This document shows, piece after piece, positions 18,155-61,911 of a stretch of DNA of 64,000 nucleotides (within the stretch, counting starts at the first letter, position 1; every line of letters begins with the position of its first letter). The position numbers were made by a program, and so were the translations under genes. Below the pieces are notes generated by a model that saw only the letters and a program-made list of their open reading frames with translations, had not been told where the DNA came from and searched no databases. The stretch is from Christensenella sp. UBA7703 (lineage in GTDB: Bacteria; Bacillota; Clostridia; Christensenellales; CAG-138): NCBI GenBank assembly GCA_002482505.1, contig DLGD01000037.1:2888-66887 (forward strand). The letters are read 5' to 3'.

Positions 18155-18168
18155 TCAAAAGCGCAATC

Positions 18169-18199: not shown

Positions 18200-18217
18200 G
18201 TTGTTTGCGTTGGGTCA

Positions 18218-19207: not shown

Positions 19208-19294
19208 AAGTGTTCTTTTCCTCCATAAAATTTTATGTAACACGGAGTCATCCGTAATTACCAAGTGTTTGCGGCGTAAGCCGCAAGAGAAATA

Positions 19295-46856: not shown

Positions 46857-47432
46857 ATGCGGCAATCAGGAATCTACGTGCCACAAGACGATCCGGCGGA
46901 TGACTGGGCATATCTTCCGGTTGCGCGCGCGCGGCGGCGTTCGGGCGCGGGTAAGGTTCTGCTTGGTGTCTTTGCCGCGATACTGCTCCTTTCGGCGCTT
47001 GCGCTGCTCTATATCCGTCAATACACCGTGACGGGTGTTTCGATGGAACCCACGCTGATGGCGGGAGATCGCGTTTTTTACGTCGGATTTACCGAGGCAA
47101 ACTATGGTGATCTGGTCATCTTTGACGCGGGCGACCTCTACGGCTTGGTCATCAAACGCGTTGCCGGACTTCCCGGAGACCGCGTTGAGGTCACAGCGGA
47201 CGGACACCTGCTGCGCAACGGAATAACGGTTGACGAAGGTTATATCATTCCAGATTCGCTCGGCAACAGCGCGATGGCGGAGACGAGGGTTGAGAACGGG
47301 AAGCTCTTCTTGTTGGGAGACAATCGCGCGGCCTCCATCGACAGCCGCGATATCCGCGTCGGCCAGATCGCGATTTCGTCTGTGCGCGGCGTGGTCACGC
47401 AGATGCTGCGCAGCACGGGGTCAACTTCATAA
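46857..47432 (+). CDS. lepB: Signal peptidase I (S26 family)
   Basis: GVSMEPTL (catalytic Ser), VIKRVAGLPGD (catalytic Lys) and LLGDNRAASIDSR are present, with one N-terminal TM helix. Confidence 0.9.
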   Translation: MRQSGIYVPQDDPADDWAYLPVARARRRSGAGKVLLGVFAAILLLSALALLYIRQYTVTGVSMEPTLMAGDRVFYVGFTEANYGDLVIFDAGDLYGLVIKRVAGLPGDRVEVTADGHLLRNGITVDEGYIIPDSLGNSAMAETRVENGKLFLLGDNRAASIDSRDIRVGQIAISSVRGVVTQMLRSTGSTS

Positions 47433-47458
47433 GATCAATACGTTCGTCAAGCGCCTGC

Positions 47459-49567
47459 GTGATGCAGGGGAATCGGCCTTATAGAAGACGAAAGGCAACG
47501 ATTGCGACACAAACGCAGATGAATCGGCTATACAAAGGATCAAAACAACGGATGCAACAAACACACAGAATAGGGAAAGGTGCATTGTCTCTCCTGCTCA
47601 TCACACTCATGTTGCTGCAATTCGGCTGCGTGGGTGAGACGGTGCATGCGCTGGACTATTCTTTGGAGAGCGAATTATACACCGATCAGCCGGTAGCAAC
47701 GCCGCAACCTGCGGAGCAAACTCCTGCGCAGCCGGGTACAGCAAGCGAGACGCCAACCCCGGCGCCAACCCCAACCCCCATAAATACTATAAGCCCAACC
47801 CCAACGCAAACAAGCGCAACCATGACGCCAACAAACACAACCCCAACACCGACGCCGCAGGGAACAAGTGCCGGAACAGAAACCCCGCTGCCGTCTCAAA
47901 CGCCGGAGTTGCACCGCCTGACGATTTTGGTGCAGGATGCCTCAGCCGCTCCGCTGATTGGCGCGCGGGTCATGTTGTTTCAGGATGGCTCCGTGCTCTT
48001 TTCCGGTATGACGGGGAGCGACGGCAACGTCTCCTGGACACTTGCGCTCGGGCACAGCTATCGGGTGAAGGCGGCGCTTTCCGGCTACGTGCCGAGTGAT
48101 GGCGACGATAAAACCTATGATATGGCGCAGGATGTGGCAGTCAAAATCACGCTTGTGCAGGGCACATCCGGCGAAACGGGCACCACAACGCCAACACCGC
48201 TGCCCGTGCCGGAAGGCGCGCCGGGCAAGGTTTTGATCACGGCCGACGATGTTTCGATTCAGCCAAAACAGGCAGGCTTTGGCTTGCTGGACGGCGTGCG
48301 CGCGCAGACGGAACTTGGCCAGCCCGTTGCAGTTTGGGTTGTAGACAAAGGCGGTTTTTCTGCGGAGACGCCGGGCTCTTATACCGTGACCTATGGTGCG
48401 TTTGAAGAAGGAAAGCTCATCACCGCAACGCGAACGGTTACGGTTGAAGGCGCAACGGAAGAAACCGCGCCCCAGGATCAGCCGCATGCGCCATTCGGCA
48501 GCAGCAAGGAACGCTATGAAATCTTGATGGCATACCGTGCGGAAATTGGAGATCAGCTCAGCGAGCGCATTGCCGCGCTGACCGAGGAATATAAGCAAAA
48601 GGTTGCCGAGGCGCAGGCCGCCAACGGGGAATCACGTATCCTCGCGCCGAGCGCCGCGGAGAACGACACGGACGATATGACCACGGCGGCAAAGGATGTT
48701 CAGCAGACGCAAGAGGTCCGCGTGACCAACTGGCCGGATGTACTGGCGACGTTCCTCGCGCAAAACGTGGCAAATGAAGACCGGCCGCTGAATCAGTATG
48801 AACTCATGGATATCCCGCTGGATCGACTCGACAGCGTGTTTTGGGATATGAACCCGATTGAAGTCTTCCGCATGGACGGAACGGCAAACGTTTTGCTCAA
48901 CGCAAAGTCTTATGAGGACATGGCGGATGTGTACGGCATGAGCGCAAACCGCAGGACCTTCCTCTATGAGCTCATGCAGCCGGAGTTTCAGCGTACGTTT
49001 GCTTCCATGACGGGCAATACCGCGTTTTTTGAAACTTCCAAAGAAGGCCTGGGCGAACTGCTCGACACGCTGCCCGGAGACACGAACGTAGAGCGCAAGC
49101 AGGTTGTGGAGACCGCCTTCTCACTCGTTGGCAAGATTTCCTATGTGTTTGGCGGCAAATACAACCGCCTCGGCTGGAACAACGCCTGGGGCAACGCAAA
49201 CGAAGCGGAGGAAGGCGACAAGGTTCGAATCTCGCGTGACGACGGGCTTGATTGCAGCGGGTTCGTGAGCTGGGTGTTTATCAACGCACTTGGCGATCCT
49301 GCGGCGTTGCGCGTCATCGGCAACGGTTCGAGCAATCAATGGGCGCATTCCGAGGCAATTGGCTGGGACGAGGGAAAGCCGGGCGACCTTGCGTTCTATT
49401 GCGCGCCGGGGGAGCGGCAGTATAACCACGTCGGCGTGATCGTCGCGGTTGACGACGACGGCAGCTATCTGATTGCGCACTGCTCCTCGGTGCAGGATGG
49501 CGTTGTCGTGACCGATGGCTGGAGCACGGGGTTCCGTTACCTGCGAAGGCCCGCATTTTTCCAATAA
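47459..49567 (+). CDS. Secreted NlpC/P60 (C40) cell-wall hydrolase with T/P-rich linker and carboxypeptidase-regulatory-like domain
   Basis: The signal-like segment ALSLLLITLMLLQFGC is followed by a TPTP-rich low-complexity run. The C-terminal catalytic region has GLDCSGFVSWVF (Cys) and YNHVGVIV (His). The start is uncertain (GTG 47459, ATG 47462, 47519 or 47552). Confidence 0.8.
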   Translation: MMQGNRPYRRRKATIATQTQMNRLYKGSKQRMQQTHRIGKGALSLLLITLMLLQFGCVGETVHALDYSLESELYTDQPVATPQPAEQTPAQPGTASETPTPAPTPTPINTISPTPTQTSATMTPTNTTPTPTPQGTSAGTETPLPSQTPELHRLTILVQDASAAPLIGARVMLFQDGSVLFSGMTGSDGNVSWTLALGHSYRVKAALSGYVPSDGDDKTYDMAQDVAVKITLVQGTSGETGTTTPTPLPVPEGAPGKVLITADDVSIQPKQAGFGLLDGVRAQTELGQPVAVWVVDKGGFSAETPGSYTVTYGAFEEGKLITATRTVTVEGATEETAPQDQPHAPFGSSKERYEILMAYRAEIGDQLSERIAALTEEYKQKVAEAQAANGESRILAPSAAENDTDDMTTAAKDVQQTQEVRVTNWPDVLATFLAQNVANEDRPLNQYELMDIPLDRLDSVFWDMNPIEVFRMDGTANVLLNAKSYEDMADVYGMSANRRTFLYELMQPEFQRTFASMTGNTAFFETSKEGLGELLDTLPGDTNVERKQVVETAFSLVGKISYVFGGKYNRLGWNNAWGNANEAEEGDKVRISRDDGLDCSGFVSWVFINALGDPAALRVIGNGSSNQWAHSEAIGWDEGKPGDLAFYCAPGERQYNHVGVIVAVDDDGSYLIAHCSSVQDGVVVTDGWSTGFRYLRRPAFFQ

Positions 49568-49646
49568 TCAATGCCTCAGCAAAACATTGTTTCGATGAAA
49601 CCCGCGCAGGAAAGCGGATTCCTTGAAAAATAACGTGGAATATGCA

Positions 49647-49675
49647 TTGTAAAACAAGAAGGATTACATTATAAT
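49647..49675 (+). promoter_or_regulatory. Near-consensus sigma-A-type promoter inside the ORF-free region
   Basis: TTGTAA (49647-49652), a 17-nt spacer and TATAAT (49670-49675). No convincing ORF follows for about 1 kb. Confidence 0.4.
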
Positions 49676-50452
49676 CGGAGATGTAACGAATTCATGTATG
49701 AATTTTCGATGCATAAGTAGCACGCTGCATCATTACATCTATCGTTTTTGATAGAAAAATTACGATGCAACAGGCAAATACACCGTGTTTGCGTGCATAA
49801 TCACTTGACAACTGTTGCGCTATTTGTTATTTTTATGACAATGCAGTTTTGTACTTGTGTACACAACCGCAAGAGCAGCATGGTGTGCAACCCCGCGCAA
49901 GACTGTTAATTATTCATGAACATTCACGGTTTTTTATGCAATTAGGCCGCAGTTCGGTTAATATGGTGAAAAGGGCTGAATATAGCGGTTTTTTGCAGAA
50001 TAGAAAGTCAAACCACCAGCAAGAGAAATTGGAGATTAATGAATATTAAGCAATGGTCATACGGATTGTCACGACCCAACTGTGTCACTTGAACAGACAG
50101 TAAACCGGATGCTCGGACGCCAGATATCAAACGGGCGAAAGAAGCGTATGCAATCGAACAGAATGAATATTCGTTTACTACCGGTGGTAGACATCGTCGA
50201 AGACGACACTAAATCATGATTTTTCCAAACGGTTTTCTGCAGACGGAGCTCAGTACCACGCGAGAATCATAGCAATAGTAATGTTCAACAGAAAACAGTT
50301 TCAGCGTGAACCGGTAGCCATTGATCGGATCATCAGCAAGCCTTCATCCTGTTTTCGCGCTATAGCGGCAAGGCGGGAAAGCAATGATCGAAATAGCCGT
50401 ACGGATCCTAGGAAAATACTCGTTGTACCTTGATAGCTGTATATAAGTGCGA

Positions 50453-50552
50453 TTCTTCCCACGCAAATGGCACACCCCGCGAAAGCGGGCGTCGCAAAGC
50501 TATAGGGCCTAACGGCAGAAGTGCCCACGGCAGCCAGTTTCCGAATGAAGAA
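50453..50552 (+). promoter_or_regulatory. c-di-GMP-I (GEMM-I) riboswitch aptamer candidate
   Basis: P1 is TTCTTC (50453-58) paired with GAAGAA (50547-52). The core ACGCAAATGGCACACC-CCGC-GAAA-GCGG-GCGTCGCAAAGC-TATAGGGCCTAA…GCCC…AGC parallels the conserved GEMM-I core (ACGCACAGGGCAAACC…GNRA…GGGACGCAAAGCC…GGCCUAA) as I remember it from Vc2. Confidence 0.75.
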
Positions 50553-50607
50553 CTCACGTTTCGCACAACCGTCCGAAAGACGGCTTGGTTGTGTTTCAAA
50601 AAAACGT

Positions 50608-50652
50608 AACGGTTCAAATTCATGAGGGATTTGAGCCGTTTTTCATTTTTTT
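50608..50652 (+). terminator. Intrinsic terminator of the riboswitch expression platform
   Basis: A 12-bp stem AACGGTTCAAAT/ATTTGAGCCGTT (one G-U pair) with a 9-nt loop is followed by TTTCATTTTTTT. A further hairpin CACAACC…GGTTGTG lies at 50564-50593. Confidence 0.8.
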
Positions 50653-50716
50653 GCTATGGCTATCATATAGATCCAATACCTTTGTGATGATTGGTGAAGA
50701 TTGAGGAGAAACAAGA

Positions 50717-51343
50717 ATGCAGGTTTTACTGCCGATTTTCTACGGCGCTGCACTGGGCGCCGCATTGGCGGTTCCCGCGCGGCTCCTCTCGGGATTATTG
50801 CTCAAGCGCCGCGGGTTTGAGGCGCAGATGGAACGCAGGCATTTCCTGATCATGCTTGCTGCTATGACGCTGACCGGCGGAGTGATCGGTTGGCGGGCGG
50901 GGGTAACCTTCCGCGGGCTATATCTGCTGCTTTTGCTGCTGGTTTCGGCCTGCGCGTTTTACATCGATGCAAAACATCGCGTCATTCCAAACGAGCTGTG
51001 GCTCGCCGTGCTGGCTTTTGCCCTGGCGTTTGGGATACCGGGCGCGATCAAGTTTCAGATTTGGCAATCTCTGTTGGGGTTTGCCGTCTGTTTCGTCATC
51101 TTCTTTATTCCGAGCTTGTTCGGGCAGAAGATTGGCGCAGGAGATGTAAAGCTGGCGGCGGCAATGGGCTTTGCGCTCGGGCTGACAGGCAGCCTTTATG
51201 CGATTGCTTGCATGGGCGCGCTGGTGCTGCTGTATGCTGTGCTCGATCAGAGCATGCCGCTGCCGCAACGACTCAAGACCATGATCCCGATGGGGCCGTT
51301 TCTCGCACTGGCGCTGGTCGCAATGTCGATCATACTCGTTTAG
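50717..51343 (+). CDS. tadV: A24-family prepilin peptidase (CpaA/TadV-type)
   Basis: A polytopic protein with the two aspartyl motifs FYIDAKHRVIPN and GAGDVKLAAAMG. RBS GAGGAGAAACAAGA. Confidence 0.85.
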   Translation: MQVLLPIFYGAALGAALAVPARLLSGLLLKRRGFEAQMERRHFLIMLAAMTLTGGVIGWRAGVTFRGLYLLLLLLVSACAFYIDAKHRVIPNELWLAVLAFALAFGIPGAIKFQIWQSLLGFAVCFVIFFIPSLFGQKIGAGDVKLAAAMGFALGLTGSLYAIACMGALVLLYAVLDQSMPLPQRLKTMIPMGPFLALALVAMSIILV

Positions 51344-51469
51344 CCACGGTATTCGTGCGCAAGCTTGCTATGTCAATGGCCACGAGCGCAGAAAACAAGT
51401 AGTCCGGAACGTACAAGCGTTCTCAAAATAGGGCAAAAGCCCGAAAAATAATAAGGGAGGTAATAGGAC

Positions 51470-51622
51470 ATGATGAAACTTTGGAAGAACGAAGAAGGCC
51501 AGGGCATGGTGGAATATGGTCTGATCATCGCACTGGTCGCGATCATCGTTATTGCCGGCATCTCGCTGCTGGGCAAGAACATCGGCAACCTGTTCAACAC
51601 GGTTGCAGCAAACATTAAGTAA
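51470..51622 (+). CDS. flp: Flp-family type IVb/c pilin 1 (50 aa; absent from the ORF track)
   Basis: MMKLWKNEEGQG|MVEYGLIIALVAIIVIAGISLLGKNIGNLFNTVAANIK. It has the classic Flp G/xxEY processing motif and a hydrophobic helix. RBS GGGAGG lies 9 nt upstream. Confidence 0.85.
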   Translation: MMKLWKNEEGQGMVEYGLIIALVAIIVIAGISLLGKNIGNLFNTVAANIK

Positions 51623-51664
51623 AATAACTACTTGGTAAGACACGCTAGAAGGAGGAATAAGAGT

Positions 51665-51817
51665 ATGAAGAAGTTTTTCATGAATGAAGAAGGCCAGGGC
51701 ATGGTGGAATATGGTCTGATCATCGCGCTGGTTGCAATCATCGTCATCGCCGGCATTTCGCTGCTGGGCAAGAACATTGGCAATCTGTTCAACACGGTTG
51801 CTGACAACGTCAAGTAA
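51665..51817 (+). CDS. flp: Flp-family pilin 2 (50 aa)
   Basis: MKKFFMNEEGQG|MVEYGLIIALVAIIVIAGISLLGKNIGNLFNTVADNVK. The predicted mature part differs from pilin 1 at only 2 residues. RBS GAAGGAGG. Confidence 0.85.
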   Translation: MKKFFMNEEGQGMVEYGLIIALVAIIVIAGISLLGKNIGNLFNTVADNVK

Positions 51818-51854
51818 CAAAATCCGGAAACATCAAATGGGAAGAGGGCGCGAA

Positions 51855-52010
51855 ATGATGAAAAGCTTCGTTCTCAACGAGCGGGGACAAGGTCTGGTGG
51901 AATACGGCCTGATCCTAATGCTTGTTGCTCTTGTCGTCATCGGCGGTCTTACACTGCTTGGCGGAAACGTAGCCGCGTTTTTTTCAAACGCCAGCAACCT
52001 TTTTCAATGA
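51855..52010 (+). CDS. flp: Flp-family pilin 3 (51 aa, divergent)
   Basis: MMKSFVLNERGQG|LVEYGLILMLVALVVIGGLTLLGGNVAAFFSNASNLFQ, with RBS GAGGG 6 nt upstream. Confidence 0.8.
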   Translation: MMKSFVLNERGQGLVEYGLILMLVALVVIGGLTLLGGNVAAFFSNASNLFQ

Positions 52011-52229
52011 TTGCTGACGCGGTATGCCGGACGGCATGTCGTGAAGCGACGGTTACCATACGGAAGCGGAGCGCCTGCCCGGTTTGCGTAAAACGCGGAT
52101 CGGGTTGGTTGTTGTTAGTGTCCTCAAAGGTATGTGGAGGGGAAAACGCCCTGACACAAATCGACACACAAACGAACCGAACAGACAAAAGCGGCCGGTT
52201 TGTTTTGCGGGTCATGGTTTCGGCATGAC

Positions 52230-52271
52230 GGGATGAGAGCAGCGCATGAACGCAAGGGCTACTCTCATCCC
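52230..52271 (+). promoter_or_regulatory. Strong hairpin in the flp3-tadE intergenic region (possible attenuator or RNA-stability element)
   Basis: Perfect 10-bp stem GGGATGAGAG/CTCTCATCCC with a 22-nt loop. The downstream sequence GGCATCCTATTTCAAATTTT gives only an interrupted U-tract. Confidence 0.4.
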
Positions 52272-52404
52272 GGCATCCTATTTCAAATTTTATATCGTAT
52301 GATGCAATATCCTCGGTATCTCTGGCGCTGCAATGAAACCGGATTGCGGCGCGAGAGATGCTGATGATTTCGTATCCTACCCTGCAAAAAGGAGGGGGAA
52401 AGTC

Positions 52405-52866
52405 ATGAGCCTGCTTGACCCGAGAACGGCAGCCAAACAACGGCGCAATCAAACCATCACAGAAAAAAAGCGGCTCCGCGAGAGCGGGCAGTCCGCCGTG
52501 GAAACGGCGCTCATGCTGCCGCTTCTTCTTCTGCTGATCTTCGGCATGCTGGAGATGGGTTGGCTTGCCACTACGCGGCAGACGATGGATACCATCACGC
52601 GGGAAGCAACGCGCGCCGGTGTGGTCGCTGCGAGTACAACCGCGAGCACGACCGCCGTGAACAATGCGGTAACGAGCAAAAAACCCGCATATATGAAAAA
52701 GACGATCACGGTCACCGTCACGTTCTCCAAGCCTTCGAGCTTTAAGGATGGGGACATCACCGTGACAACCGCCTACGACCTGCCACCACTCACGCCGCTG
52801 ACGGCGTTTTTGGTGCCTTCGGGGGTTTATCATATCGTATCGACCTACACGATGAAAGTTGGTTAG
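52405..52866 (+). CDS. tadE: TadE-like minor pilin/pseudopilin
   Basis: …ESGQSAVETALMLPLLLLLIFGMLEMG is the TadE N-terminal motif with a G/xxxxE processing site. The ATG at 52405 follows AGGAGGGGGAAAGTC. Confidence 0.75.
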   Translation: MSLLDPRTAAKQRRNQTITEKKRLRESGQSAVETALMLPLLLLLIFGMLEMGWLATTRQTMDTITREATRAGVVAASTTASTTAVNNAVTSKKPAYMKKTITVTVTFSKPSSFKDGDITVTTAYDLPPLTPLTAFLVPSGVYHIVSTYTMKVG

Positions 52867-52987
52867 CACGGCTGGTTTCAACGTATGGTTCAACCCGTGC
52901 CGTAATCAATATGGGTGCTGGAGACAGCGGAAGCGTTTGATGATGCATATGCTCCGTCAACCCGCCTGATCCGACAGGAGGATTCTC

Positions 52988-53764
52988 ATGAAAAAAGTTG
53001 TCTTGTTCGCCCTGATCGCCGCGCTCTGCGCGGGCGCTCTGCTCTACTTTTATCTGGGCAATCTCGAAGCGCAGAAGCAGGTGAAGGTGGAGTATGACAA
53101 CGTGGTTGTTGCAGCGGTCGATATTCCCGCTTACACACCGATCACGAGCGAGATGGTCACATTCAAGCAGATACCGGCGGGCTATGCGCATCCGCTTGCG
53201 ACGCGTTCGGTCGAGGACGTGATTGGCTACGTGACCGAAAGCGCGATCCTTGCAGGGGAAGAGCTGCTTCCGTCAAAGCTCAAGCAGTTTGGCGAGACGG
53301 ACAGCGGGCTTTCCTATGTTGTGCCGGAGGGTATGCGTGCTGTGACGGTTGCGGTGGACGAAGTATCCGGTGTTGCGGGATTCCTACAGCGCGGAGATTA
53401 TGTGGACGTGATTTCCTATACCACAACCACCTATGTGCCGGCCAAAGCGCCCGTGGTTGCGGAGGGAGGAGAACCGACGGCGGATCAATTGCCGCAGACG
53501 CTGAGTACAACATTGGTTGCGGCGCAAAATGTCCGCGTTGCCGCGGTCGGCAAGTCGCTCTCAGGTGCTGCAGCCGCAACGGAAGACCAGGCGGCGGAGG
53601 GCTATAACAGCGTGACGCTGCTGCTCTCGCCGGAGGATACCATGCGTGTCGTGCAGGGCGCAAAGAGCGGCTCGATCGTTTTAATCTTGCGCGCATCCGG
53701 CGATCACACACCAAACACGCAGGAACCGGTCATCAACGACATGCTTTTGATTCGCGCGGAGTAA
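52988..53764 (+). CDS. cpaB: Flp pilus assembly protein CpaB/RcpC
   Basis: An N-terminal TM anchor is followed by a SAF-like segment (VVVAAVDIPAYTPITSEMV) and an RcpC-like segment (GMRAVTVAVDEVSGVAGFLQRGDYVDV). Confidence 0.85.
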   Translation: MKKVVLFALIAALCAGALLYFYLGNLEAQKQVKVEYDNVVVAAVDIPAYTPITSEMVTFKQIPAGYAHPLATRSVEDVIGYVTESAILAGEELLPSKLKQFGETDSGLSYVVPEGMRAVTVAVDEVSGVAGFLQRGDYVDVISYTTTTYVPAKAPVVAEGGEPTADQLPQTLSTTLVAAQNVRVAAVGKSLSGAAAATEDQAAEGYNSVTLLLSPEDTMRVVQGAKSGSIVLILRASGDHTPNTQEPVINDMLLIRAE

Positions 53765-53772
53765 GGGGAAAG

Positions 53773-54900
53773 ATGAACAGCATTCGCATCATGTTGGCAG
53801 CGAATTCTGCCGATGACAGAAAACTGATTTCAGGGCTATTGACGGATGAGGCGCTTCGCGTTGTCAGTTCGTTTCGCCCGGATGCCGACGGGCTAAAGAA
53901 AGCCTCTTCGCAACCAGCGGATGTGCTTTTGATCGGAACCCGCGCGATGCCAAGCCAGGAGCTGGATTTTGCAGAGCGGATGTTTACGACGCGAAGCGAC
54001 ATCACCATTCTTCTGCTTGCGCCGACGCTGGACAGCCGGACGCTTACCCGTGCGATGGAGTGCGGAATCGCACGTGTGATCGACATCGACAGCAGCGAGC
54101 ACGATATTTGCACACACATCATGACGGCGGCAAACCGGGACCAGAACCGCCGCAACAGCACACAGAAAATTGCAAGTTACGATTCCAAAATCGTCGCGTG
54201 TTACTCGCCCAAGGGCGGTGTAGGGAAAACCACGCTGGCGGTGAATTTGGCATATGCCCTCGCGACCATGAACAAAAAAATTGCGCTGATTGACCTGAGC
54301 TTACAGTTCGGGGAAGTTGGCGTTTTTTTGGATATCGCCAAAGGCGATACGATCGCGGACATGGTCGAGGAGCACTCGTTTGAACTCTCCACGATCAAGA
54401 GCTATCTCATCCGGCACCAAAGCGGCATTCAGGTCATGCTCTCCAGCAGTTCGCCGGAGTATGCGGAGCTGATTCAGCCGGTGCATGTCAACGCGATTCT
54501 TTCCTCGTTGCGGACGGAATTTGACTATGTCATCATCGATATGGGGGTGGCCTTTGGGGACTGCGCCATTGCCGCGATGGAGACCGCAGATACGATCCTG
54601 CTGGTGGTCAATGAGGACATCGCTTCCCTGCACGACGCAAAGCGCAGCATCAAGGTGCTAGAGGCGCTGAACCAACAGGACAAGCTCAAGATCGTCGTCA
54701 ACAAAGAGGGGATTTCGACCATCACGGTCAAGAACGTGGCAAATCTTTTGGAAGCCACGCCTGTGCTTGTGATCCCATATGATCTCAAGGCGGCTATGCT
54801 CGCGGTCAACCGCGGAATTCCGATGCTGAGCTGCGCGCCAAATTCGAAGGCGAGCAAAGAGATTCGCAACTATGCACACGCCCTGATTCGGAGGGTATAA
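53773..54900 (+). CDS. tadZ: TadZ/CpaE: atypical receiver domain + MinD/ParA-type ATPase
   Basis: The N-terminal receiver-like fold lacks the acceptor Asp (ADVLLIGTRAMP). The deviant Walker A is SPKGGVGKTTLAVNLA. TadZ with this architecture is known from Eubacterium rectale (established knowledge, from memory). Confidence 0.85.
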   Translation: MNSIRIMLAANSADDRKLISGLLTDEALRVVSSFRPDADGLKKASSQPADVLLIGTRAMPSQELDFAERMFTTRSDITILLLAPTLDSRTLTRAMECGIARVIDIDSSEHDICTHIMTAANRDQNRRNSTQKIASYDSKIVACYSPKGGVGKTTLAVNLAYALATMNKKIALIDLSLQFGEVGVFLDIAKGDTIADMVEEHSFELSTIKSYLIRHQSGIQVMLSSSSPEYAELIQPVHVNAILSSLRTEFDYVIIDMGVAFGDCAIAAMETADTILLVVNEDIASLHDAKRSIKVLEALNQQDKLKIVVNKEGISTITVKNVANLLEATPVLVIPYDLKAAMLAVNRGIPMLSCAPNSKASKEIRNYAHALIRRV

Positions 54901-54902
54901 TC

Positions 54903-56213
54903 ATGGGACTCTTGGAGCGCCTGGACAAAAAGACACCAACTCCGCAGGCAGGTGCCGCGGCGCAGGCGGAGGCGGACGAAGCCGCAGCCCTGCGTGAGCG
55001 GGTTCACTATCAGGTTGTAGAATCGCTCAACAAACGCGATGAAAAACACAGCGGTGGAACGAACGAGGCGGAAACGCGCGCCATCATCGAGTCCGCGTTG
55101 GAGCAAAATGCGTCCGCCATGGCTCGGCCGGAGCGCAACCGCATCGCAATAGAGATATACGATTCCATTCGCGGCCTCGGCCCGCTGGAAAAACTCCTGG
55201 CCGATGAAACCGTCAGTGAAATCATGGTCAATGGCGCGAAGCAAGTGTTTGTGGAGCGCAACGGCAAGCTGGCGCAGAGCGACGTCACATTTTATGACAA
55301 CGAGCAATTGCTCAATGTCATCGATCGTATCGTCTCCCCGTTGGGCCGTCATATCGACGAAGCAAACCCGATGGTAGACGCGCGCCTGCCCGATGGCTCC
55401 CGTGTCAACGCGGTCATCGCGCCACTTTCGCTGAAAGGCCCGTTGCTGACGATCCGAAAGTTTTCCAAAACGCCGCTGACGGTGGAAAACCTGGTCAACT
55501 TTGGAAGCCTTACGATGAAGATGGCGGCGTTTCTCGAAGCCTGCGTCAAAGGCCGGCTCAATGTCGTCGTCTCCGGCGGTACCGGCAGCGGAAAAACCAC
55601 GCTGCTCAACGTTCTCTCCGCCTATATCCCATATGACGAGCGTATCGTCACCATCGAAGACGCGGCGGAGATTCAGCTGCAACAGCAGCATGTGCTGACG
55701 CTGGAAGCAAGACCCGCAAACCTGGAAGGAACCGGACAGATCACCATTCGCGATTTGGTTCGAAACGCGCTGCGTATGCGACCGGATCGCATCATCGTTG
55801 GCGAGGTGCGCGGCGGCGAAGCGCTGGATATGTTGCAGGCGATGAACACGGGCCACGACGGCTCGCTGACCACCGGCCACGCGAACTCCACGCGCGATAT
55901 GCTCGCAAGGCTTGAAACAATGGTGCTCATGGCGGGTATGAACTTGCCCGTTTCCGCAATTCGCCAGCAGATTGCCTCTGCAATCGACATCATCGTGCAG
56001 CAATCGCGTATGCGAGACGGCAGCCGTAAGATCATCGGCATCAGCGAGGTGATCGGAATGGAAGGCGACGTGATTGTGACGCAGGAGATCTTCACCTACG
56101 ATTATGGCGATGGGCGCACACCGGGTCGCTTCCGCGCAACAGGAATCAAGCCGCGCTGTGCCGATAAGCTTTTGGCGGCTGGTGCGGGGCTCAAGGACGA
56201 GTGGTTCCATTGA
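54903..56213 (+). CDS. tadA: TadA/CpaF secretion ATPase (VirB11/GspE superfamily)
   Basis: Walker A VSGGTGSGKTTLLN, an Asp box/Walker B IVTIEDAAEI…RMRPDRIIVGEVRG and a His box GHDGSLTTGHAN are present. Confidence 0.95.
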   Translation: MGLLERLDKKTPTPQAGAAAQAEADEAAALRERVHYQVVESLNKRDEKHSGGTNEAETRAIIESALEQNASAMARPERNRIAIEIYDSIRGLGPLEKLLADETVSEIMVNGAKQVFVERNGKLAQSDVTFYDNEQLLNVIDRIVSPLGRHIDEANPMVDARLPDGSRVNAVIAPLSLKGPLLTIRKFSKTPLTVENLVNFGSLTMKMAAFLEACVKGRLNVVVSGGTGSGKTTLLNVLSAYIPYDERIVTIEDAAEIQLQQQHVLTLEARPANLEGTGQITIRDLVRNALRMRPDRIIVGEVRGGEALDMLQAMNTGHDGSLTTGHANSTRDMLARLETMVLMAGMNLPVSAIRQQIASAIDIIVQQSRMRDGSRKIIGISEVIGMEGDVIVTQEIFTYDYGDGRTPGRFRATGIKPRCADKLLAAGAGLKDEWFH

Positions 56214-56283
56214 TATTGACGCTCGTATAACGAACGATAGATACTCTGCGATCTTCCGGATCAAGAAGCTGTTTAGAGAGGGG

Positions 56284-57222
56284 ATGAAACACATGATTCG
56301 TGCTTTGGTCGTTCTGGCGTTTGTCATCGCGTGTTATTTCATCTTCTATCTGATTGCGGCTGCGCGCACGAAAGACAAGCGCAAGATGGATGACCGCGTG
56401 CGCGAGCTTTTTGAGCTCAACGCAAACGAGAGCGCGGACAGGCGCATCAGTAAAAATACAAAGCGCAAAAATCCGCTCCGTCTGGAGCAGATTGCAGACG
56501 AGCTGTATGTTGCCGGCGTCGCGCTGCGCGCGGAAGAGTTTATCACGATCTGGATTCTCATGGGCGCGGTGATTCCCGCAATTGCGCTGTTTCTTGGCGC
56601 GCCGACGACGGTCTGCATCGGGCTCGTCATCGTTGGCGCCGCAGCGCCGATTTCGTGGGTAACCATCAAGCGAAACAAGCGCCTTGCGATTCTGGGGTCT
56701 CAGCTTTCGGATGCGCTCGCAATTATCTGCAATGCGCTTCGCGTCGGGCAGTCGTTTCAGTCTGCAATGAAAAACGTTGCGGACGAGATGGAGGAGCCGA
56801 TCTCGCGTGAGTTTATGCGCGTTTACCGGGAAACACAGTATGGCATGCCGCTTGAAACCAGCCTTGCCAGGCTTGTGAACAGGACGAAGAACCCCGATCT
56901 GGAGTTGATGTCCTCCGCGGTCATCATTCAGCGGCAGATCGGCGGCAATCTTGCCGTCATCCTGCAAAATATTTCCGACACGATCAACCAGCGCATTCGC
57001 CTGCGCGGAGAAATTCGAACCATGACCTCCGCCGGACGCATGAGCGGCTATATCATCGGCGGTTTGCCGGTCGTGATTATACTGCTGCTGATGTTCATCA
57101 ATCCGGGTTATATCGATATGTTTTTTACGACGTCGTCCGGCAGAATCATGCTGCTTATCAGCGCGGTTTTGGAAGCAATCGGCTTTGCGGTCGTCAACAA
57201 AATTGTCAATATTAAGCTCTAA
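56284..57222 (+). CDS. tadB: TadB-like type II secretion system F-family platform protein
   Basis: A TM helix is followed by a T2SSF domain (LSDALAIICNALRVGQSFQSAM…) and two C-terminal TM helices. The start is ATG 56284 or 56293; the ORF-track start at 56104 overlaps tadA and is rejected. Confidence 0.8.
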   Translation: MKHMIRALVVLAFVIACYFIFYLIAAARTKDKRKMDDRVRELFELNANESADRRISKNTKRKNPLRLEQIADELYVAGVALRAEEFITIWILMGAVIPAIALFLGAPTTVCIGLVIVGAAAPISWVTIKRNKRLAILGSQLSDALAIICNALRVGQSFQSAMKNVADEMEEPISREFMRVYRETQYGMPLETSLARLVNRTKNPDLELMSSAVIIQRQIGGNLAVILQNISDTINQRIRLRGEIRTMTSAGRMSGYIIGGLPVVIILLLMFINPGYIDMFFTTSSGRIMLLISAVLEAIGFAVVNKIVNIKL

Positions 57223-57237
57223 AGGAGGAGATGCCGC

Positions 57238-58161
57238 ATGAGACTTGTGGTTTTGTCGTTTACGATTGCGGTGTTCCTTGGATTTGTGGCGCTGTTACAG
57301 AGCTATGGGCAGAAGAGCGACCAGATGAGGAAGCGCTTCAATCAAGTAGCGGAGGCGGAGCGCTCGTATAGCGATGAAGAACTCAAGAAATCGTTTACCG
57401 AGCGTGTGCTCAAGCCACTGATACGGCGAATCACAGAGGGAATCCGCCGCTCGGCCGGAAACCGCCCCGTAGGGCAAAGCAAAGCGACGATGAAACTTGA
57501 TAAGCAACTCAAAGCATCCGGCCTCGCGTTGTCGCTGCAGGAGTTCACCTTTATCAAGAGCATGCTGATCCTCGTGTTTTTCGTGGTTGGCATCGCGCTG
57601 TTTCTGCTCCTGCCGATCAATTTCCTTCTGCGGCTGGTTGTCCTTATGGTGATGCTGAATATTCCGCTCTATGGAACCAGCTATTTTCTCACCTCGCAAG
57701 TGAAAAACCGCAAAGAGAGCATTTTGCGTGAGCTGCCGGAGACGATGGATGTGTTGATGGTCAGCGTGGAGGCAGGGCTTGGACTGGACGCAGCAATTGT
57801 GCGCCAATATGCGAAGAACAAATCCGTCGTGCTGACGGAGCTGAACAACGCGATTCGCGAAGTGCAGATGGGTGTTCCGCGCAGGACCGCGCTCAAAGAG
57901 ATGGCGGATCGCTGCGATGTCAAGGAACTTACCGCGTTTGTCACCGCGCTGCTGCAGGCGGATCAACTTGGCGTGCCGATCAAAAACGTGTTGGACGTGC
58001 AGGCGGAGCGGCTTCGTGTAGAGCGCAAGCAGATGATTCAGGCAAAGGCCGCAAAAGCACCGATCAAGATCATGCTGCCCACGGTCGCGTTTATTTTCCC
58101 TGTGATTTTCATTATTCTGCTTGGTCCCGCCGTGGTAGAGCTCATCTCTACGCTGAGCTAA
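57238..58161 (+). CDS. tadC: TadC-like type II secretion system F-family platform protein
   Basis: T2SSF domain (LRELPETMDVLMVSVEAGLGLDAAI…) with flanking TM helices. RBS AAAGGAGGAG. Confidence 0.8.
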   Translation: MRLVVLSFTIAVFLGFVALLQSYGQKSDQMRKRFNQVAEAERSYSDEELKKSFTERVLKPLIRRITEGIRRSAGNRPVGQSKATMKLDKQLKASGLALSLQEFTFIKSMLILVFFVVGIALFLLLPINFLLRLVVLMVMLNIPLYGTSYFLTSQVKNRKESILRELPETMDVLMVSVEAGLGLDAAIVRQYAKNKSVVLTELNNAIREVQMGVPRRTALKEMADRCDVKELTAFVTALLQADQLGVPIKNVLDVQAERLRVERKQMIQAKAAKAPIKIMLPTVAFIFPVIFIILLGPAVVELISTLS

Positions 58162-58246: not shown

Positions 58247-58588
58247 ATGAAGACGGTTCAGATCGCAAAAAATGGCGAAACCATCGCGACAGTTTGGCAT
58301 GCAACAGGATATTTTGCACGATTGCGCGGCCTGCTGGGGCGGAAACTGGAAGCGGACGGTGGCATGTTGCTCACGCCTTGCAGCGAGATTCACACCATCG
58401 GTATGGGCTATGCAATCGACGCACTGTATCTGGATAAAAACGGGCGGGTGCTGCGGATAGACGAAGCGCTTGCGCCCGGCAGAGTATTGCCGCGGCAGCG
58501 CGGCGCAAGGCACGTTCTGGAGTTGCCGGAAGAAAGTGCAAAACGGCGCGGACTGACGGCGGGAGACATACTGGAGGTAATCCGATGA
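58247..58588 (+). CDS. DUF192-like small protein
   Basis: …ARLRGLLGR…GMLLTPCSEIHTIGMGYAIDALYLDKNGRVL…HVLELP matches the DUF192 pattern as I remember it. It lies 86 nt after tadC, and its stop overlaps the next start (ATGA). Confidence 0.7.
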   Translation: MKTVQIAKNGETIATVWHATGYFARLRGLLGRKLEADGGMLLTPCSEIHTIGMGYAIDALYLDKNGRVLRIDEALAPGRVLPRQRGARHVLELPEESAKRRGLTAGDILEVIR

Positions 58589-59547
58589 ACGAACCAACTG
58601 AGCGTAGCGTAGAGGGAATCGATTCCCTGCGCAGCCGCATGGACTCCGATGCGCGGTTTCGCAGAGCGCTATCCGGCTACGACCCGCAGGATGTGCGCGC
58701 TTATGTGGAAAACGTAAAGCGTATCTTTGCGCAGCAGGCAAAGGCAGCCAAACTGGAACAGGAAAACCTGATTGCCCAGCTGGATTGCGCAAAGAGCGAG
58801 ATTCAGGCGCGCAACTACGGCATAAAAAAGTTTAAAGAACTGCTGGTGGAACGCGAAGCGCAGCTGAACAACGCAAACACGCGCATCAACGCGCTGCTGC
58901 AAACCGTGAAATCCCACGGCGCAGAACGCGAGGAGCTTGAGCGCCTGCGGCAGGAGGCGGCAAGCAGCGGAAACGCGGAGCGCATCGCTTCGCTGGAAAA
59001 AGAAACCCAGCAGTTGCGGTCTGCGGTTGCCCAGGCTTCCAACCTCGTCAACACATGGAAAGCGGAGCGCGAACGATTGATGGAGGAAAACGACCGTCTG
59101 CGTGAGGAGATCTATTACCTTCGCGCGGTGACGTCAAGACAGATGGAAGTGGAGCCGGTCCACGCCTATACTCAGCAGGGCGCTTACGAAGGCAATTTTG
59201 ATCAGCCGATGAGGCCGATGAGGCCGGACGTCATCACGGCGGAGAACCGCTTTGTTCAGCAGAGCGCACAGCAGGTGATGCAGCAACCCGCTCAGCAACC
59301 CGTTCAACAGCCTGTTCAGCAGCCCGTGCAACAACCGATGCAGGCGCAGGCTGCCAACCAACAAAGAGAGTTTTCACAGGTTGCCGATAAACTCGCGACA
59401 ATGTTTGCCGAGGCATACCAGTTGATCAGCCAGTTTAAGTCCAACCTGGATGCGCAACCGGAACCCCAGTCGCGGCCGGCCCAGCCCGCGATGCAGATTT
59501 TGCGTCCGGAAGCTGTAAATGCGGATGCGTTCTATCCAAGAAGATAG
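58585..59547 (+). CDS. DivIVA-domain coiled-coil protein with Q/P-rich repeat
   Basis: FRRALSGYDPQDVRAYVENV is a DivIVA-type N-terminal motif. It is followed by a long heptad-like coiled coil and the repeat QQPAQQPVQQPVQQPVQQPMQ. Confidence 0.7.
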   Translation: MNEPTERSVEGIDSLRSRMDSDARFRRALSGYDPQDVRAYVENVKRIFAQQAKAAKLEQENLIAQLDCAKSEIQARNYGIKKFKELLVEREAQLNNANTRINALLQTVKSHGAEREELERLRQEAASSGNAERIASLEKETQQLRSAVAQASNLVNTWKAERERLMEENDRLREEIYYLRAVTSRQMEVEPVHAYTQQGAYEGNFDQPMRPMRPDVITAENRFVQQSAQQVMQQPAQQPVQQPVQQPVQQPMQAQAANQQREFSQVADKLATMFAEAYQLISQFKSNLDAQPEPQSRPAQPAMQILRPEAVNADAFYPRR

Positions 59548-59702: not shown

Positions 59703-60140
59703 TTATTCCGGTTTTGCGCGTTGATACAGAAGGATCTTTCTAGCAAAGAAATTCCAAAAGAGCACAACGGCGGAAGCGATCACCTTGGAAATCATATAGT
59801 GCAGCAGCACGATCTCTGTGAAGCAATACAGCAGCACCTCCGTGAGACCGAGCCCGATGAGGCCGATGAGCGCATAACCCGCAAACTCCAGCACGCGGCC
59901 AACCCGCGCATCCTGCGCGCGAAACACGAGCGCACGGGAGAGTAGAAAATTGCAAACAAGCCCCGCGACGAAGCCGAAACATGCCCCGAGGAGATAATGC
60001 ATCCCCAAGTGCACACAGAGCCAGAGCACGCCCGCGTCGACAAGAAACGAACACCCGCCAACGAATACATAGCGAAAGAACTGGATGAGTGGTTGTGTGG
60101 TCGGCTCCATAAACAGCCGCTTGAGCAAGGGTTTCTCCAT
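59703..60140 (-). CDS. GtrA-family membrane protein (polyprenyl-phosphate-sugar handling)
   Basis: 145 aa with 4 TM helices. The motifs QFFRYVFVGGCSFLVDAGVLWL…FLLSRALVF…FWNFFARK are typical of the GtrA family. Confidence 0.8.
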   Translation of the reverse strand: MEKPLLKRLFMEPTTQPLIQFFRYVFVGGCSFLVDAGVLWLCVHLGMHYLLGACFGFVAGLVCNFLLSRALVFRAQDARVGRVLEFAGYALIGLIGLGLTEVLLYCFTEIVLLHYMISKVIASAVVLFWNFFARKILLYQRAKPE

Positions 60141-60160
60141 CGAATCCTCCGTCTGTGTTG

Positions 60161-61705
60161 TTATGATTTTTTCTCGTGATAGCTTTGCTCGGTGTTAACG
60201 CTCCAGATGTTTTCGCGTCCGGGTTGACCTGTGCGGATGCTTTCCACCGCCTCAAACGCCGTTGCCATCGAGTGATCCATGTTGTTGTAGCGGTGTTGCC
60301 CGTTGCGCCCAATGCAATAAAGGTTTTCGATGCTGTCGAGATACGTTTTTAGGGTATCGATCTCGTCATAGGTGTCAAAATAGGCGGGATATGCCTTCTG
60401 TACCCGCTCCCGGCAACTGCTGAGAATAGGAGTATCGGCAGAGATGATCCCGATATGAACCAGCTCCTCCACCGCAAGAGAGATGCAAGCTTCTTCGCTC
60501 ATCGACCAGAAGTCATCGCCTTCGGCGCAAAAATACTCAAGCCCGATCCAGACCGTGTTGAGCGGGTCTTTCACCATATAGGGAGACCAATTGTTGAAAA
60601 TCTGCACGCGGCCGAGCTTCACACCCTGATCCTGCACATAGATCCAGCAATCGGGCACGATGTTTCCGAGGGTTTTCATGCCGGTCGAGTTGGTGATTTT
60701 TAGCCGCTCGACCAGCAGCCCGACGGTGACAAAATCCCGATAAGGAAGGCCGGTTGTGATCCTTCGAATCTCCGCCGGAACTTCCGGCAGCCCTTCCACA
60801 AGGGCGCAAAGCGGCATGGACGAGAGTACAAGGTCGCAGGGGAACGATTCGTCCCCGCAGTTGACCGCTGTGATTCGGTTTTGTTCAACGGAAAAGCCGG
60901 TCACTTTTTTGCTAGACAGCACCTCGCCGCCGCGCGCAAAAACCTCTTGGCAAACCGTTTCCCAAAGCTGGCCGGGGCCAAACTTCGGATAAGCAAACTC
61001 TTCGATGAGGGACGTTTCCACGGTGCGCTTGCTGGCGGGCAGAAGCCGCTGGAGAATGTTTTTGAGGAGCGCGAGGATCGAAAGTCCCTTGACCCGCTGC
61101 GCACCCCAGTCGGCGGAGATGGCGCGCGGATGCCTGCCCCAGACCTTTTCGGTGTAGCTTTCAAAGAACATGCTGTAGAGCACTTTACCGAAACGGTTGA
61201 TGTAAAAGTTTTCCAGCGATGTCTCCGGCAGCTTGCGCACACAGGCGTAAAGATAAGAAAACCCAGCGCGCAGCGTGGTAAAAAAGCCCATGTTGCGGAT
61301 GGTGGACCATTTCAGGCTGATCGGATACTCATAAAAGCTGCCGCCGAAATAAATGCGCGAGACGCGCCGACGGTTGAGCATGACGCGGTCTTCCGTTTCC
61401 GGGTCGGGGCCGCCGGGGGAAAGACGAGCCGGGCGGGAGAGCACACGCTCATCTAGCGCGGGCTGCCCCTGCATCGGCAGCATCTGCTCCCACCAGGCGG
61501 TTACGCGCGCATCTTTGGAGAAAAAGCGGTGCCCGCCGATGTCGATCCGGTTTCCGGCGTGCGCAACGGTCTTGGAAATGCCGCCGATGCGCGTGTCTTC
61601 TTCCAGAATGGTGACGCGGTACGATTCCGGCTCAGAAAGCAGCTCATATGCCGCGGTAAGCCCGGCCGGGCCCGCGCCGATGATGACCACATGCGTTTGC
61701 TTCAT
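60161..61705 (-). CDS. NAD(P)/FAD-dependent oxidoreductase (amine-oxidase / UDP-galactopyranose-mutase-like fold)
   Basis: N-terminal [17 protein letters not shown]…[12 protein letters not shown]…GGHRFF. The start is chosen at MKQTHVV (ATG 61705) so the GxGxxG motif is N-terminal. It lies 20 nt upstream of gtrA, suggesting an operon. Confidence 0.7.
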
Positions 61706-61911
61706 ATACGATGACAGGTCTCCTTGTATTCGATGACGCAAGAGCGTGAAATGATGAAAGAACGTGTTCCAATTCGTTCCATTCTACCATTCTTTCCCCG
61801 CAAAAAAAAGGCGTATGGGAATATACATAACGGTTTACACTGGATGGTTTGGGATTCAATTTATAAAATAGGCGCGCATTTTGCGCGGTAGAGCAAAGAG
61901 GACGCAGACAA

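Follow-up and report, generated by a model that had tools for sequence, protein, structure and literature searches.

A secretin-less Tad/Flp pilus locus with a c-di-GMP-I riboswitch leader in a Firmicutes-type organism

Results

Gene content and conservation

The stretch of DNA analysed (64 kb, hereafter the window) comes from a Firmicutes-type organism and carries a Tad/Flp (type IVc) pilus locus that lacks a secretin (Table 1). Its ten Tad genes, at positions 50717-58161, are all on the forward strand, and each is an uninterrupted ORF with a Shine-Dalgarno sequence. An earlier note had assigned these genes to Tad families, and HMM searches supported each assignment, with flp3 alone falling marginally, by 0.6 bit, under the Pfam cut-off of 32.2. 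No frameshifts or stops were found; all ten genes are intact, and decay can be dismissed because the gene lengths equal those of the orthologues in relatives. In more than 100 protein clusters, drawn from many samples, identity to these genes is 71-100%; this conservation and the intactness of the genes point to purifying selection. The gene order recurs in 15 or more relatives, with TadA identities of 57-91%.

The same note had described the set as complete in one operon with short gaps. This is correct for the core genes but not for the boundaries, as the riboswitch and terminator lie 5', the DUF192 and coiled-coil genes 3' and a TadG-like gene elsewhere; nor is it correct between flp3 and tadE, where the gap measures 394 nt and the RNA is strongly structured. 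The conserved unit runs from the c-di-GMP-I riboswitch past tadC to the DUF192 and coiled-coil genes (58247-59547). The absence of the secretin RcpA/CpaC and of TadD was borne out: neither family turned up when the other ORFs of the window (the 34 largest of them) were scanned, nor within 10 kb in syntenic relatives. No TadF-like second pseudopilin was found in the 50-64 kb region with Pfam or by BLAST with the locus proteins. The missing secretin and TadD are a defining trait of the monoderm subtype and are not counter-evidence for membership in the Tad family.

Table 1 Features of the Tad locus and its surroundings (positions in the window)
Feature	Position	Strand	Evidence or remark
Candidate promoter	49805-49833	+	TTGACA, 17 nt, TATTTT with upstream TG; consensus scan
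c-di-GMP-I (GEMM) riboswitch aptamer incl. P1	50452-50556	+	Rfam RF01051
Proposed antiterminator helix	50550-50615	+	GAACU 50550-50554:GGUUC 50611-50615; ACGUUU 50556-50561:AAACGU 50602-50607
Leader hairpin 1, between aptamer and terminator	50564-50593	+	Folds; compensatory differences vs L001 and other relatives
Intrinsic terminator, 64 nt before tadV	50608-50653	+	Stem 50608-50640, U-tract 50641-50653
tadV/cpaA, prepilin peptidase	50717-51343	+	Peptidase_A24 E 4.9e-15, 56.3 bits, full profile covered
flp1, pilin, 50 aa	51470-51622	+	Flp_Fap 44.2 bits; predicted cleavage ...NEEG/QGMVEYGL
flp2, pilin, 50 aa, near-duplicate of flp1	51665-51817	+	Flp_Fap 41.3 bits
flp3, divergent Flp pilin, 51 aa	51855-52010	+	Flp_Fap 31.6 bits, E 1.4e-7; NERG/QGLVEYGL
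Structured flp3-tadE spacer, 394 nt	52011-52404	+	Folding z -7.05; L001 counterpart z -7.41
tadE, pseudopilin, 153 aa	52405-52866	+	TadE PF07811 51.2 bits; ESG/QSAVETAL
cpaB/rcpC, 258 aa	52988-53764	+	N-terminal transmembrane helix, SAF, RcpC; Pfam
tadZ/cpaE, 375 aa, atypical receiver and MinD/FleN-like ATPase	53773-54900	+	AAA_31/ParA; KGGVGKT
tadA/cpaF, ATPase, 436 aa	54903-56213	+	T2SSE E 1e-67
tadB, platform protein, 312 aa	56284-57222	+	One T2SSF domain
tadC, platform protein, 307 aa	57238-58161	+	One T2SSF domain
DUF192 protein, 113 aa, directly after tadC	58247-58588	+	PF02643 57 bits
Coiled-coil protein, 320 aa, DivIVA-like N-terminal motif (FRRALSGYDPQDVRAYV)	58585-59547	+	TIGR03544 16.5 bits
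TadG-like gene, type B, 5' part (106 codons; window ends within gene)	63682-64000	+	PF13400 Tad 44.3 bits

Pilins, assembly machinery and spacer

The prepilin peptidase TadV has 208 aa and no methyltransferase domain. Motifs read from the sequence place its predicted catalytic pair at Asp84 (YIDAKHRVIP) and Asp143 (GAGDVKL), give the Flp motif G/xxxxEY as EEG/QGMVEYGL and ERG/QGLVEYGL, and identify GGTGSGKTT as the Walker A of TadA. TadA matched the CpaF structures 8rkd (E 7e-124) and 9e24 at E about 1e-123 over residues 58-423, and CpaB matched both the TIGR03177 equivalog (151.7 bits vs a cut-off of 71) and the RcpC structure 9gzr (E 9e-5). The start of tadB was picked by RBS and orthologue length.

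TadZ had been described as carrying an atypical receiver without the acceptor Asp. The receiver fold was upheld by an AlphaFold model, in which residues 1-128 form a (beta-alpha)5 domain (block-mean pLDDT 74-92 over residues 1-120), and by comparison with PDB folds, where the top match was 3FKQ (E 6.6e-9, 336 aligned columns). This structure is TadZ of Eubacterium rectale, which likewise joins an atypical receiver to a MinD/ParA-type ATPase, at only 19% identity. The loss of the acceptor is less certain, as it depends on a weak alignment with the CpaE N-domain in which Asp stands against Gly55; the Response_reg score, 19.9 bits, is under the cut-off. The ATPase domain of the model is of low confidence (pLDDT mostly 40-65) and is closer to FleN and MinD by sequence. 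Relatives already bear the name CpaE in public databases.

Within the flp3-tadE spacer, hairpins H6 (52229-52272) and H8 (52314-52363) are conserved, with compensatory changes, in L001, L161, L162, L164 and L165 (L numbers denote the loci of relatives), and an Rfam search of the spacer matched no family.

Downstream genes

In most Firmicutes loci, and in several from Chloroflexi, the gene after tadC is a DUF192 gene. In the window its stop overlaps the start of the co-oriented coiled-coil gene (ATGA, 4 nt), the two being translationally coupled, and the pair is conserved in relatives. The coiled-coil gene had been called DivIVA-like. An N-terminal motif match does exist and is kept at the same position in seven loci, but it is sub-threshold (TIGR03544 cut-off 22 bits); in a profile comparison with a canonical DivIVA, hhalign gave a probability of 43% and E 2.5e-4 over 32 columns, GpsB matched at E 0.015, and there was no Pfam DivIVA match at E 0.01. 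Otherwise the protein has weak SMC/PspA-type matches only, and we do not class it as DivIVA.

The TadG-like gene lies outside the operon, 5.5 kb downstream, separated from the other genes of the locus by an insertion of three glycan-type genes. It is 66-74% identical to the full-length genes (378-383 aa) of L161, L162, L164 and L165, which sit 3' of the coiled-coil gene. In most relatives a type A TadG-like gene of 339 aa lies between tadE and cpaB; this gene is absent from the window, and the loci without it (the window, L161, L162, L164 and L165) all carry a type B gene downstream. A wall hydrolase of the CHAP/NlpC-P60 type, which has a Pro/Thr-rich linker, is also encoded nearby.

The riboswitch leader

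The candidate promoter, of which the Tad operon is the candidate target, lies between the two halves of a conserved inverted repeat, TGCATAA (about 49797) and TTATGCA (49934); the promoter block is conserved in L161, L162, L164 and L165, and the sequence between blocks varies. The aptamer matches the full-length RF01051 model at 50459-50545 with 73.2 bits (gathering score 35), scores 110 bits with a custom covariance model, and is closed by the P1 strands UUCUUC (50453-50458) and GAAGAA (50547-50552). Its stems covary across seven relatives. Among 161 loci it occurs only in L001-L004, L015, L083 and L161-L166, always immediately 5' of tadV or flp. The 161 nt from the aptamer end to tadV hold an intrinsic terminator that covaries across nine leaders: 93.5% of cells are paired, six of its 12 pairs have compensatory changes, and none of 500 shuffles reached its covariation score. 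A GGDEF cyclase gene is also encoded in the window, at 9303-10514.

The proposed antiterminator helix is mutually exclusive with P1 and with the terminator. In the window its duplex has an energy of -10.1 kcal/mol (p=0.02 vs shuffles) and, in a transcript ending before the terminator 3' arm, an ensemble probability of 0.72; in transcripts ending likewise, the probabilities are 0.36-0.99 in eight of nine leaders. In the model it is 0 for L001, from the closest genome. The complementarity is significant in the window (at the p of 0.02 given above) and in L164 and L165 (p<0.002), borderline in L163b and L166b and not significant in four of the nine leaders, and these p-values overstate the support, because the leader sequences are related and not independent. 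In the more distant leaders the terminator 5' arm pairs with the aptamer 3' tail (p<=0.02 in L002a, L003a and L004). RNAalifold recovers just the invariant GAAC:GUUC pairs, without covariation. The equilibrium fold of the full window leader contains both P1 and the terminator even in the ligand-free state, and the switch would therefore have to be kinetic.

Discussion

The directly observed gene identities, intactness, aptamer, covarying terminator and conserved synteny are, as a whole, best explained by a functional Tad (type IVc) pilus machine of the monoderm type, gated by a riboswitch. We consider this likely, function as a pilus being predicted from the genes. From what is known of the families, cleavage by TadV at G/xxxxE would mature the pseudopilin TadE and all three Flp prepilins, the CpaF-type ATPase TadA would power assembly on the TadB/TadC membrane platform, and TadZ, with its atypical receiver fused to a MinD-like ATPase, would recruit or position the machine. 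In diderms, CpaB forms a periplasmic ring beneath the secretin. RcpC is known as a ring that docks onto the secretin (PMC12307814); kept here without a secretin, CpaB probably forms a conduit through the cell wall. The structured spacer may attenuate or process the transcript, by which pilin transcripts are probably kept in excess over machinery transcripts. The TadG-like, DUF192 and coiled-coil proteins would be conserved accessories.

Transcription would enter the operon through the c-di-GMP-I riboswitch and then meet the intrinsic terminator. The ability of the P1 3' strand to pair with the terminator 5' arm leads us to think, with moderate confidence, that the leader acts as an OFF switch responding to c-di-GMP. 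In the absence of ligand, this strand, together with its flank, would pair with that arm and polymerase would read through; with c-di-GMP bound, P1 would be locked, the terminator would form and the operon would be shut. c-di-GMP usually promotes adhesins, and the type IV pili of C. difficile are turned on by it. In line with this general paradigm, the same locus and riboswitch could work through an ON switch, c-di-GMP causing read-through and pilus production coinciding with the sessile, high-c-di-GMP state, as it does for the type IVa pili of C. difficile. Both the preference of the ligand-free full window leader for the terminator at equilibrium and the lack of a modelled antiterminator in L001 would fit such a switch, and ON logic was proposed for GEMM riboswitches with overlapping aptamer and terminator (Weinberg 2007). 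Here, however, there is no such overlap, the terminator lying 55 nt past P1, and no strand was found in the leader that pairs with the terminator solely when P1 is closed; the 5' arm of hairpin 1 offers just six complementary bases, held in a stable hairpin, and the P1 3' strand is the only conserved partner of the terminator 5' arm. The class I c-di-GMP riboswitches of C. difficile are, moreover, uniformly OFF switches (PMC6200980). We regard an ON switch as rather unlikely. Under the OFF switch, the Tad pilus of this Clostridia lineage would be a low-c-di-GMP (planktonic-phase) organelle in which a wall-spanning CpaB ring, the DUF192 protein and the coiled-coil protein replace the outer-membrane parts, and the DivIVA-like membrane-targeting motif of the coiled-coil protein could set the site at which the pilus is built. 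We put this combined proposal forward tentatively, as possible; if true, pilus expression at low c-di-GMP would run counter to the general pattern of adhesins being switched on by c-di-GMP.

The pilus may serve DNA uptake (competence) or motility instead of adhesion, a role shown for Tad pili in Micrococcus luteus. Among monoderms, Tad pili are able to mediate transformation (review PMC6916266), and a planktonic function would agree with expression at low c-di-GMP, provided that the OFF model holds. Against this, neither in the window nor in relatives was a competence gene (comEA, comEC, dprA) seen beside the locus, and the sequence carries nothing that discriminates DNA uptake or motility from adhesion; we consider this role improbable. 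That the locus is a crippled, non-functional remnant is suggested by the loss of the TadG-like gene from the tadE-cpaB interval and the interruption by three glycan-type genes, but a type B gene is present downstream in every locus without type A, and intact genes conserved over so many protein clusters speak against it, which makes decay very improbable. Hardly to be expected at all is a diderm host with its secretin and TadD genes at other places in the genome. The data cover 64 kb of that genome, and Firmicutes diderms with Tad secretins exist (PMC6668835). However, the relatives are labelled Clostridia, Eubacteriales or Clostridiaceae, about 15 syntenic loci have no secretin within 10 kb, and the wall hydrolase with its Pro/Thr-rich linker lies nearby. 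Judging from the Clostridia/Eubacteriales labels of the relatives, with the secretin search confined to the 64-kb window, the host appears to be monoderm.

The locus is a clean new example of an already described system and not a new kind. The earlier view that such a system is largely open and incompletely described was overstated: PMC12786226 already describes the same 13-gene Firmicutes architecture. That architecture, from Bulleidia extructa and published in 2025, begins with tadV, followed by pilins, TadE-type pseudopilins, a TadG-like protein and assembly genes, has no secretin, and ends 3' with DUF192 (~112 aa) and a coiled-coil protein, features that the window shares. Unlike that operon, the window has three flp genes, a single TadE-type pseudopilin, no TadF, a TadG-like gene displaced behind the three inserted glycan-type genes, and a 394-nt structured spacer after the pilins; no riboswitch leader is mentioned for B. 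extructa in the section of PMC12786226 consulted. Monoderm Tad systems have also been reviewed (PMC6916266, PMC6668835). The locus itself thus adds little, as monoderm Tad systems are catalogued, the architecture is published and public databases already carry annotations of the genes. What the locus does offer is a well-resolved set of about 15 syntenic loci for comparison, which bears on how, and in which direction, a class I c-di-GMP riboswitch gates a Tad operon, on the role of RcpC/CpaB with no secretin to dock to, and on the contribution of the conserved DUF192 and coiled-coil pair.

The Tad (Tfpc) systems of Bifidobacterium breve UCC2003 and M. luteus are likewise secretin-less, with Flp, TadE/F, TadA, TadB and TadC (PMC6916266). 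TadZ occurs in B. breve and TadG in M. luteus, and the window combines TadZ with a TadG-like protein; it adds CpaB/RcpC, DUF192 and the coiled-coil protein, three components outside the B. breve inventory, and the M. luteus comparison in that review adds TadG only (PMC6916266). Unlike in these two systems, tadV lies inside the locus and riboswitch control is predicted. With the diderm Cpa, Tad and Rcp/Tad systems of Caulobacter, Aggregatibacter and Pseudomonas, the window shares CpaF, CpaB/RcpC, CpaE/TadZ, CpaA/TadV, Flp and two platform proteins. In contrast to them it has no secretin (CpaC/RcpA), TadD or RcpB, and RcpC is kept nonetheless.

As for the leader, cpaA was among the GEMM-associated gene families listed in 2007 (PMC1950547), and we did not find functional data in the literature for any Tad-linked c-di-GMP-I riboswitch. 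Cd1, upstream of flgB in C. difficile, resembles the window riboswitch in its RF01051 aptamer, its terminator-based expression platform and its proposed OFF logic with the P1 3' strand as antiterminator. Unlike Cd1, the window riboswitch precedes a Tad pilus operon rather than flagellar genes and has a long platform with an extra hairpin.

Results

The Tad locus of the window is an ordinary, already described kind of system, to which the only non-trivial addition would be the logic that we infer for its riboswitch, namely that c-di-GMP shuts the operon via a terminator. The earlier note had claimed a complete secretin-less Tad/Flp pilus set in one operon at 50717-58161; its gene identifications were correct, and the boundaries were misjudged. 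Ten uninterrupted ORFs in the same orientation occupy this interval on the plus strand, and a Pfam HMM check supported each assignment; the cpaB product also matches the RcpC structure 9gzr. No frameshifts or stops were found and the gene lengths are those of the orthologues in relatives, thus the locus is not decayed. A Shine-Dalgarno sequence precedes every Tad gene, and the short gaps described before hold (2-126 nt) except for 394 nt between flp3 and tadE. The reported absence of secretin and TadD was borne out within the 64-kb window, and neither family was found within 10 kb in the syntenic loci.

Features of the Tad locus and related loci (window coordinates unless a related locus, L, is named)
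Feature	Coordinates	Strand	Evidence or description
Signal peptidase I gene and 702-aa CHAP/NlpC-P60 wall hydrolase	46857-49567
Promoter-like block	49805-49833		TTGACA, 17 nt, TATTTT
P1, basal aptamer stem	50453-50458, 50547-50552
c-di-GMP-I aptamer	50459-50545		Rfam, 73.2 bits (gathering score 35)
Hairpin 1	50564-50593
Intrinsic terminator	50608-50640		followed by U-tract
tadV		+	Peptidase_A24
flp1, flp2		+	Flp_Fap
flp3	51855-52010	+	Flp_Fap, 31.6 bits vs cut-off 32.2, E 1.4e-7; motif ERG/QGLVEYGL
flp3-tadE spacer	52011-52404
Spacer hairpins H6, H8	52229-52272, 52314-52363
tadE		+	TadE
cpaB	52988-53764	+	SAF+RcpC; NCBIfam equivalog TIGR03177, 151.7 bits vs 71
tadZ		+	AAA_31/ParA, weak Response_reg
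tadA		+	T2SSE; solved Caulobacter CpaF, E 7e-124
tadB, tadC		+	T2SSF, one each
GtrA-like; 526-aa FAD/amine-oxidase-type oxidoreductase; 502-aa polytopic membrane protein	59703-63420	-; -; +
Type B TadG-like ORF	63682 to window end		strong PF13400 match
Multiple-aptamer leaders	L002 5280-5604; L003 4253-4536; L015 4716-5470; L163 5598-5938

The Tad unit really starts upstream of tadV, with the c-di-GMP-I aptamer, the sole Rfam family in the whole window, and with the terminator that separates this aptamer from tadV. When 49560-52420 was scanned against Rfam by E-value, the only matches were the riboswitch and, by chance, two miRNA-like entries at a hairpin. When our own covariance model, built from seven aptamers, was run across 161 related loci, aptamers were found in the Clostridia-type loci L001-L004, L015, L083 and L161-L166 and in no others. 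They lie directly upstream of tadV or flp, with a single exception in each of L083 and L166: there a second aptamer stands ahead of a small gene just upstream of the Tad locus, which encodes a small secreted protein or a nucleotidyltransferase. Nine leaders like that of the window were compared: their terminator stem is 93.5% paired, 6 of its 12 pairs show compensatory changes, and none of 500 shuffles attains the covariation score. Some relatives carry two or three aptamers ahead of their Tad genes, and in L002 and L003, the two such platforms examined, each aptamer has its own terminator.

At the other end, the unit really extends beyond tadC, past a 113-aa DUF192 gene (57 bits) and a 320-aa coiled-coil gene whose start codon overlaps the DUF192 stop. 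This pair lies 3' of tadC in most Firmicutes relatives, and DUF192 follows tadC in Chloroflexi loci too. The coiled-coil protein, previously called DivIVA-like, carries an N-terminal motif, F..x..GY[DKN]xx[ED]V, that is common to seven loci and does resemble the DivIVA domain (hhalign E 2.5e-4), but below the family threshold (TIGR03544 16.5 bits vs 22). In Bulleidia extructa, the tad operon ends, like that of the window, with the same two genes, whose role that report leaves open (PMC12786226).

A 339-aa TadG-like gene (type A) lies between tadE and cpaB in most relatives but is missing in the window, where no remnants of it were found between these two genes. The ORF that runs off the window end is 66-74% identical to the full-length type B genes (378-383 aa) of L161, L162, L164 and L165, and the two types are mutually exclusive among the loci compared. 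In L161 the type B gene comes immediately after the coiled-coil gene. Two genes, for an FAD oxidoreductase and a 500-aa membrane protein, stand between them in L162, L164 and the window, joined in the window by a GtrA-like gene. Because the oxidoreductase and membrane-protein genes occupy the same position in L162 and L164 but are absent from L161, the set was inserted into the Tad locus. Neither Pfam nor PDB gave a sequence match for the 502-aa membrane protein, and tying the inserted genes to glycosylation of pilin or wall is speculation; a role of the glycan trio in glycosylating the pilin was considered but set aside, since L161, L163 and L166 lack the trio.

TadZ has a FleN/MinD-like ATPase half with KGGVGKT present, modelled at low confidence because the alignment is shallow. 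Its N-terminal 130 residues gave weak sequence matches only, the best to the Burkholderia CpaE N-domains 4DAD and 4DN6 (E ~0.05). The AlphaFold model (17-sequence alignment) has a (beta-alpha)5 receiver fold at residues 1-128, with block-mean pLDDT of 74-92 over residues 1-120, and its top PDB fold match is E. rectale TadZ, 3FKQ, over both domains (E 6.6e-9). The atypical receiver proposed earlier is therefore supported in its fold; as to its missing acceptor Asp, Gly55 of 'LIGT' faces the Asp of 'MIDG' in the weak CpaE alignment, which tentatively hints at such a loss.

The flp3-tadE spacer folds far better than shuffled sequences (z -7.05; L001 counterpart z -7.41), and two hairpins in it, H6 and H8, recur in L001, L161, L162, L164 and L165, conserved through compensatory changes. 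The spacer matches no Rfam family. The simplest reading would be that attenuation or processing leaves pilin mRNA in excess. H8 is not a REP or MITE element, since no further copy of its motif turned up in the rest of the window or in other loci.

Discussion

Because terminator and aptamer do not overlap, the ligand can act on the terminator only through a competing strand that it sets free or holds back. Two pairing tests were made, a broad one of the aptamer 3' tail (GUUGCCGA in distant leaders) against the terminator 5' arm, and a narrower one of the P1 3' strand and flank against the same arm and its upstream flank. Both use related sequences, so their p-values are not independent: the broad test found complementarity in L002a, L003a and L004 (a and b denote leaders within a locus; p<=0.02) and nothing for the window or L001 (p ~0.41), and the narrower one gave -10.1 kcal/mol and p 0.02 for the window, p<0.002 for L164 and L165, 0.046 for L163b and 0.054 for L166b, and was non-significant in L001, L161, L162 and L083b. 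In the window's group, the terminator arm (GGUUC plus upstream flank) would pair with the P1 3' strand GAAGAAC and the next dozen bases, and this partner is conserved. In transcripts cut before the terminator 3' arm, the resulting putative antiterminator helix has an ensemble probability of 0.72 in the window, 0.36-0.99 in seven others and 0 in L001. The helix excludes P1 and the terminator alike, which is the classic OFF design.

On these folding predictions, the Tad leader is probably an OFF switch, as were all C. difficile class I c-di-GMP riboswitches tested (PMC6200980). An ON switch, in which the ligand promotes read-through, is rather unlikely: it calls for a strand able to pair with the terminator solely while P1 is closed, but inspection by eye and folding turned up no more than a 6-bp match hidden within hairpin 1, which was rejected as weak. 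The small remaining probability falls to a c-di-GMP leader without transcriptional effect. The OFF reading has its caveats: the window leader at equilibrium prefers P1 and the terminator even without ligand, and RNAalifold returned no more than four invariant pairs in the antiterminator region, with no covariation. A fold in which the P1 3' strand pairs instead with the U-tract, seen in an MFE structure, was rejected because L001 does not conserve it.

In diderms, CpaB/RcpC forms a periplasmic ring docked on the secretin, whereas the window and all Clostridia-type relatives keep CpaB/RcpC with no secretin found in the window or nearby. This docking of the RcpC ring was shown recently (PMC12307814). 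The claim of an incompletely described system goes too far, since Tad systems of monoderms that lack a secretin have been thoroughly catalogued (PMC6916266, PMC6668835) and the same Firmicutes architecture was published in 2025 (PMC12786226). cpaA was among the GEMM-associated genes listed in 2007 (PMC1950547), and our literature search found no functional study linking a c-di-GMP riboswitch to Tad or Flp. The nearest genome is 'Firmicutes bacterium HGW-Firmicutes-9' (TadA 91%), the window TadZ is identical to a protein of an NCBI 'Clostridia bacterium' MAG, and TadZ relatives form >100 clusters at 71-100% identity, some named CpaE by JGI.

The window also holds a GGDEF diguanylate cyclase gene (9303-10514), and in L162 (1-25) and L163 (254-4848) the riboswitch-Tad locus has PAS-GGDEF(-HD) genes no more than a few kb upstream. 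In L166, phage terminase, portal and capsid genes (17650-21128) follow the Tad locus at about 1 kb, with nothing comparable in the window. Upstream of the riboswitch, the 880-nt intergenic region is unconserved except at 49797-49965. This stretch holds the promoter-like block, with the inverted repeat TGCATAA / TTATGCA to either side of it, some 135 nt apart; L161, L162, L164 and L165 share the block and L001 does not, and it could serve as an operator pair or as a distal promoter. Directly upstream of the Tad leader stand the signal peptidase I gene and that of the wall hydrolase, which has a Pro/Thr-rich linker, and the pair also precedes the locus in L001, L161, L162, L164 and L165; the hydrolase could be a dedicated wall-remodelling enzyme, or the arrangement could simply be inherited synteny.
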